Origin: Escherichia coli
GTDB taxonomy: Bacteria; Pseudomonadota; Gammaproteobacteria; Enterobacterales; Enterobacteriaceae
Length of the DNA stretch: 64,000 nucleotides
Strand: one strand, 5' to 3'
Assembly (NCBI RefSeq): GCF_024700885.2
Contig: NZ_CP117016.1
Below, piece after piece: positions 1 through 6,000 of the stretch (position 1 is its first letter; each line of letters begins with the position of its first letter). Made by a program: the position numbers.

Positions 1-3000
1 ATGGTGATGTAGCTGATTATGCCAATCCCCATCGCCACTTTTGCCGCCAGCGCCGGAATGCGCGGGAAGAAAAAGCCCATAATGATGATGGTAACCAGCG
101 GCACGTTGTAAATACCGTTGAGCTGTTTCATCCAGCTATACAGCCCCTGCGGCGCGTTGGCGATCCACGGCGCGACCAGCACCGAAACGATGGCGATAAA
201 GAAACCAAATTTGCGCCCGACGGTGACCAGCTGCTGCGGCTCGGCATTCTGGTTAATGATGCGACGGTAAATACCCATACTGAATAACGTACTGGCGCTA
301 TTCAGAAAGCCGTTGAAGGTACTGATCACCGCACCAAATAACACCGCGCCGAAGAAACCCACCAGTGGCACTGGCAGAACGTTATTGACCAGCGTCGGGT
401 AGGCCATGTCGGCTTTCGGTAGATCCTGATACAGATGAAACGCAATCAACCCTGGCAGTACCAGTACCAGCGGGTCGAGCATTTTCAGCACCGCCGTTAA
501 CAGCGCCCCCTTTTGCCCTTCCGCCAGGCTTTTTGACGCCAGCGTGCGTTGCACGATGCCCTGATTTGTACACCAGTAAAAGGTGTTCACCAGAATTAAA
601 CCGGTAAATGCCGCGCCAATCGGCAAGGGATCGGTCGGGCCACCGACTGAGTTTAATTTCTCGGCGTGAACGGTGGTAATTTGCTCAATGCCCTGCGTAA
701 AGCTGCCCTTGCCCATCGCGATCAGGCCAAATACCGGTACCATCAACCCGCCAATAACCAGCCCAATACCGTTAATGGAGTCCGCCACTGCCATTGCGCG
801 CAGTCCGCCGATTACCGCATACAAAATTCCCGCCAGACCAAGCAAAATAACCAGTAGCCAGATAGCCGCGCCGTGGGAAATTTGTAACGATTCCCCGACG
901 TGAAACAGGCTGTTGAGCGCCAACGCGCCGGAGTAGAGAACAATCGGCAGAAAGCAGACGCCGGTGGCAATGAGGAAGCAGAAGTCGATGATAATACGCG
1001 TCGTTTTATCATAACGTTCCTCCAGAAAATCGGGGATGGTGGCAATGCCGCGCTTCAGATAGCGCGGTAAAAAGATTAGCGCGAGGAAGATCAGCGTCAC
1101 CGCTGAAGTCACTTCCCAGCCCATCACCGACATGCCGCTTTTGTAGGCCTGCCCGGAAAGGCCGACCAGTTGTTCCGTGGAAAGGTTGGTTAACATTAAC
1201 GAAGCGGCAATAACCGGCGCTTTTAGTGATCGTCCGGCAAGAAAATAGCCTTGTTGCGATCCGGTATCTGCTTTACGGACCTTCCACCAGGTGATGACCG
1301 CCACCAGCAGCGTAAAACCGACAAAACTCAAGATTTGTAACGAATTCATCTCATAGCCCTTATTTATGTTTATGTCCCGGACGCATGAATATAGGGAGAG
1401 GTAAAATGCGTCGGGTCAGGCAGTCAGATTCTTAAAATACAAACATCGTATCCCTGAACGGATTGTTTTCTGTTAAGTTCAGGTTGTGAGCATAATTCGC
1501 CGGAGGGATATTAAAATGAATGGAAAATTGCAAAGTTCGGATGTAAAAAACGAAACTCCGTACAATATTCCCTTATTGATTAACGAAAATGTGATCTCCA
1601 GCGGAATTTCTCTGATCTCGCTCTGGCATACCTACGCCGACGAGCATTATCGGGTGATCTGGCCGCGGGACAAGAAGAAACCGCTTATCGCCAACTCATG
1701 GGTTGCGGTGTATACCGTACAAGGATGTGGGAAAATTATTTTAAAGAATGGCGAACAAATAACTCTGCATGGCAACTGTATTATATTTTTAAAGCCAATG
1801 GATATTCACTCTTATCACTGTGAAGGTTTAGTCTGGGAACAGTACTGGATGGAATTTACCCCCACCAGTATGATGGATATTCCCGTCGGTCAGCAAAGCG
1901 TTATTTATAATGGCGAAGTTTATAATCAGGAACTCACCGAAGTTGCTGAATTAATTACTTCACCAGAAGAAATAAAAAATAATCTGGCAGTCGCTTTTCT
2001 GACGAAAATTATTTATCAGTGGATTTGTCTTATGTACTCAGACGGTAAAAAAGATCCACAACGGCGGCAAATTGAAAAACTAATTGCCACTTTACATGCC
2101 AGTCTGCAACAACGCTGGAGCGTAGCTGATATGGCTGCCACGATCCCCTGTAGCGAAGCCTGGTTGCGTCGTCTGTTTTTACGCTATACCGGCAAGACGC
2201 CGAAAGAATATTACCTCGATGCACGTCTGGATCTGGCGCTATCGCTATTAAAGCAACAAGGGAACTCGGTTGGCGAAGTCGCTGATACGCTCAACTTCTT
2301 CGACTCCTTTCATTTCAGCAAAGCCTTTAAACATAAATTTGGTTATGCGCCGTCAACTGTGCTGAAGAATACGGACCAGCACCCAACGGATGCCAGTCCA
2401 CACAATTAACGTAACTCTGGCCAGTACGCTTTGTTGGCCTCCAGCAACTCATCCAGAATAGCTTTGGCGACCGCGGCGCTCGGTACCGTTTTCGACAACG
2501 TAATCGCCTGCCACAGGTGCTGATATGAACGCTGTTCCCAGGCGTCCACGACCAGTTTTTCCACCGCCACTTGCTGACTCATTAACCCTTTCTGAAACTG
2601 CGGGATATCGCCGACCACCAGTGGTTCTGGTCCGTTGTGCCCGACCAGACACGGGATCTCGACCATCGCTTCATCATCAAAGTTATGGATTGCCCCGTTG
2701 TTAGGCACAATCAGCAACATCCGCTCCTGAGTGTTGAAGGCAATTGCCGCCGCCAGATCGACGATGTATGACGCATGTTCGTCAATTTCCAGCTTGCCCG
2801 CCGCTGAATTTCCTGCCGCCGTAATGGCGCGGCAAGCATCGAAAACCTGTTTCTCGCGATGTTCCATCACCTCATTCGCGCGGGTATGTTCAGGGTTGGA
2901 ATGCTGAACGACATAATCCGGGAAGAGATAATATTTCAGATAGGTGTTCGGCAATGTATCCGGGTCCAGTGCCTGGACATCCCGCGCTTTTGCATAGGTG

Positions 3001-6000
3001 TCGTTCCAGCTCGCTTCAGTATGTGTATCTTGCTGCGGTGGAACATAACCGTGCTTAGAGACATATTGCCGCAGCTGGGGCATCAGGTCGTTGCCCTGCA
3101 AATCTTCAATTGATGTCCACCAGCCAAAGTGGTTCAGGCCGTAGTAGCGCACGCGCATCTGTTTGCGATCTTGCAGCCCAACAATTTGCGCCATCCGGCT
3201 TTCAATACCGATTGGCATGTCACAGATGTTGAGGATTTTCGCATTCGGGCGCAGACGACGCGTGGCTTCTGCGACAATGGCTGCCGGGTTGGAGTAGTTG
3301 AGCATCCAGGCATTTGGTGAATATTTTTCCATATAATCCACCAGTTCCAGGACGCCGCCAATGGAACGCATGCCGTACGCTATTCCGCCGGGTCCGCAAG
3401 TTTCCTGTCCAACAACGCCGTGGCGCAGCGGGATTTTTTCATCCAGTTCGCGCATCGGGTATTTGCCGACGCGGATGTGCGCCATGACAAAATCAACGTC
3501 GCTGAACGCCACTTCAGGATCGGTGGTGTAACTAAACGCAATGTCCGGCGCTTTCTCTTTAAGGATGACTTTACAGGCTTCAGCAATGACTTCCTGCCGC
3601 GCGCCATCGTTATCATAAAATTTCAGTGCACGAAGCGGGAAACGGTCCTGATTCGCCAGGAGCATCAACACGATGCCTGGCGTAAAGGTGCTTCCACCGC
3701 CTGCGACAACCACTGAGAATTTGGTCATTATACTGCCTCCGTAATGGCAACATTTTCTGCTGATTGATGAGAATTAATTAAGCTATCGAGCTGTTCACGT
3801 AGCTGGGATACATGCAGACCAATGATCACCTGAATGGCATCGCCACTACGGAAGACGCCGTGCGCTCCCAGCTTTTTAAAGACTTCGTCATCCAGCGTTT
3901 GTGACATGTCATGCAGTGCAATCCGTAGACGCGTCGCGCAATTGTTGATGCTGGAGATATTGCCGACCCCGCCCAGGGCTTGCAGGATACCGGCAGCCTG
4001 ATCCAGCTCTTTTTTTGGCTCTGCCGCGGTGGTTTGGCCTCGCGAGGCTTTATATTCGGCTTTTGAGTAGAGTTTCACTTCCGCATCTTCACGTCCCGGC
4101 GTGCACATGTTGAACTGCAGAATCAGGGTGCGGAAAACCACGAAGTACAGCAGGGTAAAGCACAACCCAATGGCGATTTGGGTCAGCATCATATCCGCGT
4201 GGTTGCTGAACATCGGGATCCAGTTTTGCGGTAAAACCTGGTCAATCAAACCACCGCCCATGTTGCCCACCACACCAAAGAGATACATTACGGTCGACAT
4301 TGAGGCCGCCAGCACGGCGTGTACTGCAAACAGCAACGGTGAAATGAACAGGAAGGTAAATTCCAGCGGTTCGGTAATTCCCACCAGCATGGCGGTTAAG
4401 GTTGCGGGAATCAGCAAGCCCGCCACTTTTACCCGATTTTCCGGTGCGGCAGTGAAGTACATCGCTAAAGAAATGCCCACGGCACCAAAGATTTTTGAGT
4501 TACCGTGCAGGGCAAAACCGCCTTCCGGGAACAACGATTTCAGCGGCTCGGCGCTCAAACTGAACTCTTGCAGATGCTGCGCCCAGTACATCTGAATGCC
4601 GCCTTCAACAGCTGCCGGACCAAAGATAAACGGTCCGTAGATGAAGTGGTGTAAACCGGTTGGGATCAGAATACGTTCGAGGAAGGTGTAAACCCACACC
4701 CCAAGCGCACCCGCCGAACGCAGGAACGCTTGCAGAGATTCAATTCCCATTTGTACTTTTGGCCAGCCGAGCAAAGTCAGCCAGGCGCAGGGGATCATCA
4801 CCAGGAAGGCGATAATCACCACATAAGACGTCCCCTGGAAAATGCCGAGAAACACCGGCAGTTTTTTATCGAACAGGCGGTTATGCAACGCCGTCACAAT
4901 GCCGGAAATGATAATTGCGCCGATAATGCTGGTATCGAGAGTTTTAATCCCCGCCATCATTGTCAGCCCGCTACCAGCCACCGCGTCCTGAGTGAAATCG
5001 ACGCCGAAGTAGCTTCCCCAGGTCATTCCCATCGCGTTGATGAAATAGTTCCAGGTCAGGAAACTCACCATCACCGCCAGACAAGCACGCCCCTGCGCTT
5101 GCTTCGCAAGGCCAATGGGTAAACCGACAGCAAAAATCAGCGGCATATTACGGAATACCGTCCAACCGCCCTCTTCAATAATGTGTACGATTTGCGCGAA
5201 TAAACTGTTCGGATCGGTCAGTGATTCCCCGACAAACATCGGGTTTTGCAGCAAGATGGCAAGACCCACCACAATCCCGGCGAAGGGAAACAGCAGCACT
5301 GGCGTGAACATCGCGCCGCCAAAGCGTTGAATTTGACTGAGCATTTCCACATCCTCTTTTCTCAATTCTGTAAGTAGGAAGCCTGATTGGTTATGCGGCA
5401 GGCCTGGAGCGAGGATAGGAAGATGCGATCGGCAGAACATGACGACCCAGTGGGATTCGTGATCGCTTTCATGCTTTTCGTTGGGCGGTAGAGATCTACG
5501 TTTTCGCAAAAAAGTAGACATCTGTGAGCACTGGTACACAGCATCGAACACATCTTTAAAAAAAAGATGTTTTTTCAATCGATTAAGCAGAACTTGTGGG
5601 CGTATTACCCGGGCTTTCAGGCAAAAAAAGAGATCTAGAGATGATCTACAAAAGCATTGCGGAGCGGTTAAGAATTCGACTTAATTCCGCAGATTTCACG
5701 CTAAACAGCCTTCTTCCCGGTGAAAAAAAGCTGGCGGAAGAGTTTGCGGTATCGCGGATGACCATCCGTAAAGCCATTGATCTGCTGGTGGCGTGGGGGC
5801 TGGTGGTCCGCCGCCACGGTAGCGGTACTTACCTGGTGCGCAAAGATGTATTGCATCAAACCGCCAGCCTGACCGGGCTGGTGGAGGTGTTAAAACGCCA
5901 GGGAAAAACGGTCACCAGCCAGGTGCTGATTTTTGAAATCATGCCTGCGCCTCCGGCCATTGCCAGCCAGTTACGGATTCAAATCAACGAGCAGATCTAC

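Follow-up and report, generated by a model that had tools for sequence, protein, structure and literature searches.

Does the strain that carries the 64,000-nucleotide stretch of Escherichia coli DNA analysed here (the window) retain a functional alpha-glucoside pathway? The first-pass annotation raised this question on noticing two adjacent, uninterrupted genes, glvG and glvCB, for a 6-phospho-alpha-glucosidase and a fused PTS permease. The pair is very probably the intact ancestral glv allele, a vertically inherited orthologue of the aglA-aglB alpha-glucoside PTS operon of Klebsiella pneumoniae (Table 1).

Organisation and products of the glv pair

The glvG ORF starts with ATG, runs uninterrupted for 440 aa, and corresponds to the CDS WP_000160110.1 in the PGAP annotation of a 100%-identical genome. 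The transporter region extends in the ORF list from 3728 to 5578 (minus strand), giving 616 aa from a TTG codon, and the first-pass annotation had shortened it to 538 aa. This correction is borne out: the ATG at 5344 is taken as the true start because it is the CDS start of WP_000952127.1 in the PGAP annotation of the 100%-identical genome, because position 1 of the TIGR02005 profile aligns with residue 2 counted from it, and because the SD and ATGCTCAGTCAAAT start are conserved in about 20 other enterobacterial loci. Both genes are intact, as had been claimed, and every catalytic motif checked is present. The glvCB stop and the glvG start overlap in TAATG, through which glvG is predicted to be translationally coupled to glvCB. 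The transporter gene lies directly upstream of the hydrolase gene on the same strand, with a GntR-type regulator gene diverging from it, which is the arrangement of an aglAB/glv operon.

Table 1. Features of the glv locus, with positions in the window.
Feature	Position	Strand	Basis
yidL, AraC-type regulator, convergent with glvG	1516..2409	+	Pfam HTH_18, AraC_binding
glvG (aglB-type), predicted GH4 6-phospho-alpha-glucosidase, 440 aa	2406..3728	-	ORF list, Pfam, PDB, PGAP
glvG segment deleted in K-12, 508 bp	2628..3135		K-12 alignment, repeat read from sequence
glvCB (aglA-type), predicted fused EIIC-EIIB alpha-glucoside PTS permease, 538 aa	3728..5344	-	TIGR02005, Pfam, PGAP
glvCB codon 369, CAG (Gln) here, TAG (stop) in K-12	4238..4240	-	K-12 alignment (CAG>TAG, window 4240)
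glvCB-yidP divergent control region	5345..5640		alignment of 20 other enterobacterial intergenic regions
SD AAGAGGA	5352-5358		control region
-10-like TATCCT	5412-5417		control region
Conserved CRP-like box CATGAAAGCGATCACG, putative function	5458-5473		intergenic alignment
Conserved palindrome ATGTCTAC-N14-GTAGATCT, putative function	5492-5521		intergenic alignment
yidP, GntR/HutC-type regulator, divergent from glvCB	5641..6357	+	Pfam GntR HTH and UTRA

Over its full length GlvG comprises both GH4 domains, the N-terminal Rossmann domain (PF02056, Glyco_hydro_4, residues 6-184, E=2e-66) and the C-terminal domain (PF11975, Glyco_hydro_4C, residues 195-415, E=7e-56). Its best structural relatives are the 6-phospho-alpha-glucosidases 6dux (439 residues aligned, E=3e-275, 916 bits) and 1u8x (437 residues aligned, E=6e-225, 750 bits), and the scores of these matches, like those of the Pfam matches of GlvG and the transporter, exclude chance. 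Scores against NCBIfam alpha-galactosidase and AglA models fall far under the cut-offs. The NAD+-binding glycine motif occupies residues 6-18 and is the same in the alignment of 6dux and 1u8x; a GGGS motif, Cys169, Asp170, His200 and Tyr263 are also found at the aligned positions. The four residues are equivalent to Cys171, Asp172, His202 and Tyr265 of Bacillus subtilis GlvA, which we take to be Mn2+ ligands and catalytic residues. GlvG is predicted from these features to be an NAD+/Mn2+-dependent GH4 6-phospho-alpha-glucosidase of the AglB/GlvA/MalH type.

GlvCB is a single chain with an EIIC domain (PTS_EIIC, residues 10-346) followed by an EIIB domain (PTS_EIIB, residues 453-482). It carries a GITE motif (residues 322-325), and the phosphorylatable Cys469 lies within NNCATRLR, which aligns with the CITRLR loop of PtsG. 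The TIGR02005 model for alpha-glucoside IIBC components is matched with 959.2 bits against a cut-off of 607.3, residues 2-523 covering profile positions 1-524, and GlvCB is predicted to be an alpha-glucoside EIICB of the PTS Glc family. E. coli PtsG (EIICB-Glc, 8qsr) resembles GlvCB in its Glc-family EIIC-EIIB layout, GITE motif and EIIB cysteine loop, and presumably in its EIIA-Glc partner, but it is only a distant match (E=1e-57), and GlvCB stays under the cut-offs of the PtsG equivalog models (316 against 592 bits). Larger alpha-glucosides are not taken by PtsG, as reported for AglA against PtsG. Pfam detects an EIIA domain in neither GlvCB nor GlvG; the ptsHI-crr genes occur in 5,425 of the 5,426 complete E. 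coli genomes and lie outside the window, so that the source strain presumably has them.

The K-12 gene names, 'arbutin-specific EIIC' and '6-phospho-beta-glucosidase', imply a beta-glucoside system, and this old annotation is still in use, for example in Table 5 of Touchon 2009. It gains a little from the weak arbutin signal of BL21(DE3) in Biolog arrays; REL606, with the same glv alleles, was arbutin-negative (PMC6150544 S6 Table). GlvCB passes the alpha-glucoside model but none for beta-glucosides, where it reaches 45 bits (cut-off 615), and beta-specific GH4 enzymes (6-phospho-beta-glucosidases) match GlvG with about 200-210 bits, far below its alpha-specific relatives. A beta-glucoside function is very hard to credit. 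Arbutin, which the first-pass annotation named among possible test substrates, is itself a beta-glucoside, and the label 'arbutin-specific' is unsuitable for glvC.

Lesions in K-12 and variation within the species

The K-12 counterpart, glvG', glvB and glvC (b4556, b3682 and b3683), occupies the same locus, flanked by yidL, yidP, yidE and ibpBA, and differs from the window by 32 SNPs across 2,431 aligned bases. The proposed alignment to K-12 disclosed no lesion in the window, whereas K-12 carries two. The first is a 508-bp deletion in glvG, which shifts the reading frame and brings in a stop codon after 212 aa; the missing segment is bounded by an 8-bp direct repeat, AGTGGTTC, at 2620-2627 and 3128-3135. 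The second is the glvCB substitution Q369*, which leaves K-12 with two shorter genes in place of one, glvC (368 aa) and glvB (161 aa). MG1655 is annotated with glvG as a pseudogene and with glvB and glvC as separate CDSs. The first-pass statement that K-12 glvG is annotated as a pseudogene was correct; that the K-12 transporter is broken as well had been missed. At this locus K-12 makes a poor reference strain.

The Q369* state in other strains was judged from sampled loci: all six non-K-12 genomes sampled that have the glvG deletion retain CAG and a full-length glvCB ORF. Counting the allele by megablast with 55 bp around the SNP was abandoned because short queries tolerate mismatches. The undeleted glvG segment is found in 1,652 of 5,426 complete E. 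coli genomes (30%), among them O157:H7, BL21 and REL606, while about 48% of genomes (roughly 2,600) have the K-12-type deletion and about 21% are missing the whole locus. Both genes have full-length ORFs in 11 of the 12 carriers that were sampled independently, O157:H7 and BL21 among them. Strain 1190 carries exactly the allele of the window, the O157:H7 transporter is identical to GlvCB of the window, and public databases already list each of the two exact proteins on at least 1000 contigs. The gene pair is a real observation, correctly read and already known; it does not, as the first wording implied, set the strain apart, and the find is ordinary because about 30% of sequenced E. coli retain the DNA lost from K-12. 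In a neighbour-joining tree of the locus the deletion carriers are not cleanly grouped; the deletion may have arisen once and spread by recombination, or it may recur at the 8-bp repeat.

Intact E. coli alleles have low pN/pS ratios (glvCB, 0.023; glvG, 0.048), and the gene pair is under strong purifying selection. Uninterrupted genes could still be early-stage pseudogenes, inactivated by missense or regulatory changes. The window proteins do depart from residues otherwise invariant, GlvG at 9 positions (35 other-genus orthologues) and GlvCB at 25 (24 orthologues), and the locus is decaying elsewhere in the species: besides the 508-bp deletion, L006 has a deletion in EIIC, B2 has lost the locus altogether, and K-12 has Q369*. 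However, the E. coli-specific substitutions are mostly conservative, are fixed across the sampled E. coli alleles and affect no catalytic residue; moreover, synonymous-only polymorphic codons outnumber amino-acid-changing ones by 77 to 9 in glvCB and 57 to 10 in glvG, which is not neutral decay. Incipient decay of this kind is improbable.

Control region and the question of expression

The order yidE-yidP<>glvCB-glvG is kept, with a yidP orthologue divergent upstream of the transporter gene, in 22 of the 22 other-genus loci with enough flanking sequence (Klebsiella, Raoultella, Kluyvera, Citrobacter, Enterobacter, Pantoea and Phytobacter), and YidP is the likely regulator of the operon. The palindrome in the region between the two genes takes the form TGTCTA-N16-TAGACA in other genera. 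A consensus scan for CRP sites across the window found 19, where chance alone would give 25.6. The candidate among them at 5523-5538 is not conserved in other genera and gave way to the conserved box listed in Table 1. An A/T-rich inverted repeat at 5547-5573 was rejected as an operator, since this stretch does not align across genera.

It is quite possible, though we would not put it as high as probable, that the pair is intact and biochemically competent but cryptic, being silent in ordinary conditions like bgl, cel and asc, with no phenotype unless a mutation activates the operon or a special signal is present. A sigma-70 consensus promoter scan of positions 2200-5800 returned 0 sites against 3.3 expected, and the E. 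coli -10-like element TATCCT and leader diverge from the conserved TATTCT and leader of other genera. In the classical tables used for identification, E. coli is entered as negative for alpha-methyl-glucoside. BL21(DE3) and REL606, in which both glv ORFs are intact, were negative in Biolog arrays on four AglA/AglB substrates, alpha-methyl-D-glucoside, palatinose, turanose and maltitol, and their weak signals were at the level of the negative control (PMC6150544 S6 Table); it may be, therefore, that laboratory conditions leave the operon silent. E. albertii, whose type strain has a glvG fragment 98% identical to glvG of the window, is likewise reported to be negative on palatinose, turanose and alpha-methyl-glucoside (PMC9145129).

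The B strains are, however, an unclean test for the window because their alleles have defects of their own, namely a frameshifted yidP and the substitution L320P in GlvCB, two residues before GITE. The regulatory boxes are still conserved in E. coli, and the pN/pS values found among divergent lineages of the species (0.02-0.05) mean that the Glv proteins are in use somewhere. Together with the conserved catalytic residues, these values and boxes favour a functional alpha-glucoside pathway in the strain, as far as sequence can indicate. A literature search yielded no experiment on the native intact E. coli glv operon and no usable phenotype data for O157 or other intact-glv strains.

Proposed pathway and related systems

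In the proposed pathway, phosphoryl groups would pass from PEP through EI, HPr and EIIA-Glc (Crr, encoded elsewhere) to Cys469 of EIIB. EIIC would import the alpha-glucoside, which would be released with phosphate on O-6; by analogy with AglA, substrates may include methyl-alpha-glucoside, isomaltose, maltitol and the sucrose isomers. GlvG would then split the 6-phospho-alpha-glucoside by NAD+/Mn2+ GH4 redox-elimination into glucose-6-phosphate and the aglycone. Control of expression would lie in the divergent region, probably through YidP and possibly through CRP. The sequences show the integrity of the genes, the families they belong to, their orthology and synteny, the purifying selection on them, what the K-12 lesions are and how frequent the intact form is; substrate range, Crr dependence, regulation and any expression in E. 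coli are what we infer here.

More tentatively, and with some doubt, glv may be a conditional pathway for dietary or plant alpha-glucosides (such as isomaltulose, turanose and isomaltose), kept by selection in the approximately 30% of E. coli that have it, the losses through the 508-bp deletion and in B2 marking niche differences; separately, the transporter that deletion carriers keep intact may do other work as well, for instance as an auxiliary glucose permease. The operon is common and selectively maintained. Should it prove functional, the carbon sources that vary between strains of E. coli, O157:H7 included, would extend to alpha-glucosides such as isomaltulose, and the operon could be of use in feedstock engineering, which now borrows Bacillus or Klebsiella genes.

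Bacillus subtilis has the operon glvA-glvR-glvC with an RpiR-type activator, so that operon order and regulator differ from those of E. coli. GlvA (MalA, 1u8x) is, as predicted for GlvG, an NAD+/Mn2+ GH4 phospho-alpha-glucosidase, and its partner GlvC (MalP) is an EIICB without EIIA. The B. subtilis pair is a distant functional analogue and homologue, not a syntenic orthologue; glvA and glvC give E. coli the use of isomaltose and panose (PMC5309279).

The aglA/aglB pair of K. pneumoniae is far closer. Gene order and adjacency are the same, neither locus has an EIIA domain, and in strain ATCC 13883 the products are 81% (GlvCB) and 89% (GlvG) identical to those of the window. The passages of PMC5309279 that cite Pikis 2006 and Thompson 2001 state that heterologous aglA and aglB enable alpha-glucoside use by K-12, describing the K-12 homologues as cryptic or truncated, and that aglAB need only IIA-Glc in K-12 (Pikis 2006). 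The E. coli pair differs in its 9 and 25 lineage-specific substitutions and in its leader and -10 region. A divergent GntR-type gene with yidE beyond it is present in K. oxytoca, K. michiganensis, K. grimontii and K. spallanzanii, the flank available for ATCC 13883 being too short. In E. coli glvG is flanked by yidL, the stop codons of the two genes overlapping in TTAA (2406-2409), whereas most Klebsiella loci are without yidL; across other genera this association is variable, yidL adjoining glvG in about 12 loci and missing in about 18.

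Structure and identity of the glv gene products

The translation start of glvCB is the ATG at position 5344, which gives a protein of 538 aa. This is the PGAP start in strain 1190, whose region is 100% identical to the window; residue 2 falls on position 1 of the TIGR02005 profile, the alpha-glucoside IIBC model; and when the upstream sequences of 20 other enterobacterial loci are aligned, the GAGGAT Shine-Dalgarno sequence and the ATGCTCAGTCAAAT start are kept and the preceding sequence is divergent. The 78 additional codons of the 616-aa form run from its TTG across the regulatory region (5345-5578) and are a non-coding artefact. 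The ORF list, PGAP, TIGR02005 and the 20-locus alignment agree with the coordinates, lengths and start correction of the first-pass annotation. The one-base overlap of glvCB and glvG (TAATG) suggests translational coupling of the two genes. At the other end of glvG, the TTAA at 2406-2409 holds the overlapping stop codons of glvG and the convergent yidL, and the junction leaves zero intergenic room for a terminator on either strand.

Features of the glv locus (window coordinates)
Feature	Position	Strand	Description	Basis
glvG	2406-3728	-	440-aa ORF from ATG	mechanical ORF list
glvCB, ORF as listed	3728-5578	-	616 aa from TTG; directly upstream of glvG, same strand	mechanical ORF list
-10-like hexamer	5412-5417		TATCCT in E. 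coli, TATTCT elsewhere	cross-genus conservation
CRP-like box	5458-5473		CATGAAAGCGATCACG	likeness to CRP site, cross-genus conservation
Palindrome	5492-5521		TGTCTA-N16-TAGACA; E. coli form ATGTCTAC-N14-GTAGATCT	cross-genus conservation

GlvCB scores 959 bits against TIGR02005 (cut-off 607) and falls short of the thresholds set for the glucose, maltose, GlcNAc and beta-glucoside models. Its EIIC domain, with a GITE motif at 322, is followed by EIIB, in which Cys469 lies in a loop that corresponds by alignment to that of the phosphorylated cysteine in E. coli PtsG. No EIIA domain was found in GlvCB or GlvG; since the ptsHI-crr operon is near-universal in the species (5,425 of 5,426 complete genomes), EIIA-Glc is almost certainly supplied in trans.

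GlvG contains both GH4 domains and the GGGS dinucleotide-binding motif. It matches the solved 6-phospho-alpha-glucosidase 6dux (916 bits, E=3e-275) and GlvA of B. subtilis (1u8x, 750 bits) from end to end, whereas GH4 6-phospho-beta-glucosidases reach ~210 bits at most. Residues Cys169, Asp170, His200 and Tyr263 are the counterparts of Cys171, Asp172, His202 and Tyr265 of GlvA, the Mn2+ ligands and catalytic residues of that enzyme.

One genome per species of Enterobacteriaceae was scanned with a degenerate DNA pattern that encodes a peptide from the segment of glvG deleted in K-12, and 46 loci matched. In K. pneumoniae ATCC 13883, tblastn with the window proteins identified orthologues with 89% (GlvG) and 81% (GlvCB) identity. 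In all 22 loci with enough flank, from Klebsiella, Raoultella, Kluyvera, Citrobacter, Enterobacter, Pantoea and Phytobacter, the genes run yidE, yidP (divergent), glvCB, glvG. By these identities and this gene order, the E. coli pair and the characterised aglA/aglB system of Klebsiella are syntenic orthologues. PMC5309279, with reference to Pikis 2006 and Thompson 2001, states that aglA/aglB introduced into K-12 enable the use of methyl-alpha-glucoside, isomaltose and the sucrose isomers, and that the K-12 homologues were held to be cryptic or truncated. The AraC-type gene yidL adjoins glvG in only ~12 of ~30 informative loci. The Kluyvera georgiana locus (L046) carries the GH4 signature peptide twice, 3.9 kb apart (3988-4025 and 7908-7945), which points to an additional phospho-alpha-glucosidase paralogue located between these two genes, glvG and yidL.

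K-12 lesions and distribution in E. coli

In the MG1655 annotation, glvG (b4556) has pseudogene status and two distinct genes are entered for glvB (161 aa) and glvC (368 aa); PGAP tags the copies of K-12 NEB 5-alpha as 'frameshifted' and 'internal stop'. Alignment of the window with the K-12 glv genes revealed two lesions in addition to 32 SNPs. In the first, 508 bp (window 2628-3135) bounded by the 8-bp direct repeat AGTGGTTC are deleted, which cuts K-12 GlvG short after 212 residues; in the second, transporter codon 369 is changed from CAG to TAG (window 4240). The first-pass annotation had correctly given glvG as a K-12 pseudogene and had missed the transporter stop; its reading of both window genes as intact is borne out by the ORF list and by this alignment, which places the lesions on the K-12 side.

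Q369* was found in two K-12 records only and in none of six other sampled deletion carriers. All six of these non-K-12 carriers (L015-L020) encode a full-length 538-aa EIICB, in one case identical to that of the window, with pN/pS of ~0.05 among them; the transporter seems to be kept without its hydrolase in deletion carriers, which make up about half of E. coli.

Among 12 intact E. coli sequences, pN/pS is 0.023 for glvCB (77 synonymous-only versus 9 amino-acid-changing polymorphic codons) and 0.048 for glvG (57 versus 10), which is evidence for maintenance of the intact genes. Departures from residues invariant in other genera (9 positions in GlvG, 25 in GlvCB) are conservative for the most part; they are fixed among E. 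coli alleles and lie clear of catalytic residues.

DNA of glv was detected in 4,279 of 5,426 complete genomes, and the 508-bp segment is present in 1,652 (30%). An evenly spaced sample across the whole match ranking put the K-12-type deletion at ~47-48%, the undeleted form at ~30% and complete absence of glv and yidP at ~20%, besides rare variants. The last class includes an O6:K2:H1 strain and looks like group B2, from which glvC is among the functions specifically absent (Touchon et al. 2009). Both ORFs are full length in 11 of 12 independent undeleted loci fetched, one of these lacking 3 bp in frame; the twelfth has an internal EIIC deletion. The O157:H7 transporter is identical to that of the window (WP_000952127.1), and the exact GlvG and GlvCB sequences are already public, each on at least 1000 contigs, as 6-phospho-alpha-glucosidase and PTS sugar transporter subunit IIB. 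Given this carriage and these records, the glv pair is a known, common and widely distributed allele of a well-characterised system type, and not a rarity as first implied.

In ~5% of genomes an IS200/IS605 element (tnpB intact, tnpA pseudogene) takes the place of the yidK-yidL side and adjoins the 3' end of an intact glvG; in E. coli E308 (L005, 1297-2943) its position corresponds to the part of the window upstream of about 2330. Elsewhere, window 30000-54000 carries T3SS-effector-like genes (espY4, ShET2/EspL2-family toxin) close to tnaA and adeP. The region matches O166:H15 and further isolates at 100% identity and is covered to at least 80% in just 1,096 of 5,426 genomes, a limited coverage that makes it look like an accessory island.

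Activity and control region

A literature search turned up no work on an intact glv operon in its native E. coli setting. Both genes are also intact in BL21, BL21(DE3) and REL606; the latter two were negative on alpha-methyl-D-glucoside, palatinose, turanose and maltitol in Biolog arrays, weak BL21(DE3) signals being at the level of its negative-control well (Kim et al. 2018, PMC6150544, S6 Table). However, yidP of the B lineage (BL21, BL21(DE3) and REL606) carries a 79-bp frameshifting deletion (window 5820-5898), whose junction recurs in strain C and a number of natural isolates, and GlvCB of BL21 and isolate EC0026B has L320P, two residues ahead of GITE, in a protein accession that BL21(DE3) and REL606 share. 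The array negatives are therefore not simply transferable to the window's allele. A scan around the glv locus detected no sigma-70 consensus promoter. Together with the B-strain negatives and the outcome of the literature search, this counts against a simple reading as a functional pathway, and a working alpha-glucoside pathway in this strain is unproven. Other E. coli glucoside operons are silent under laboratory conditions, and by analogy the glv operon might be too, a possibility to which we give somewhat less than even weight; such silence is compatible with the assigned glv identity.

Three blocks of the glvCB-yidP intergenic region are conserved across genera, the CRP-like box and the palindrome from E. 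coli to Klebsiella, Kluyvera, Citrobacter and Pantoea. The box lies 48 bp before the -10-like hexamer, a spacing that would correspond to roughly a class I position. The palindrome half-sites GTCTA/TAGAC resemble HutC-type GntR operators, which makes the palindrome a candidate operator for YidP (GntR/HutC).
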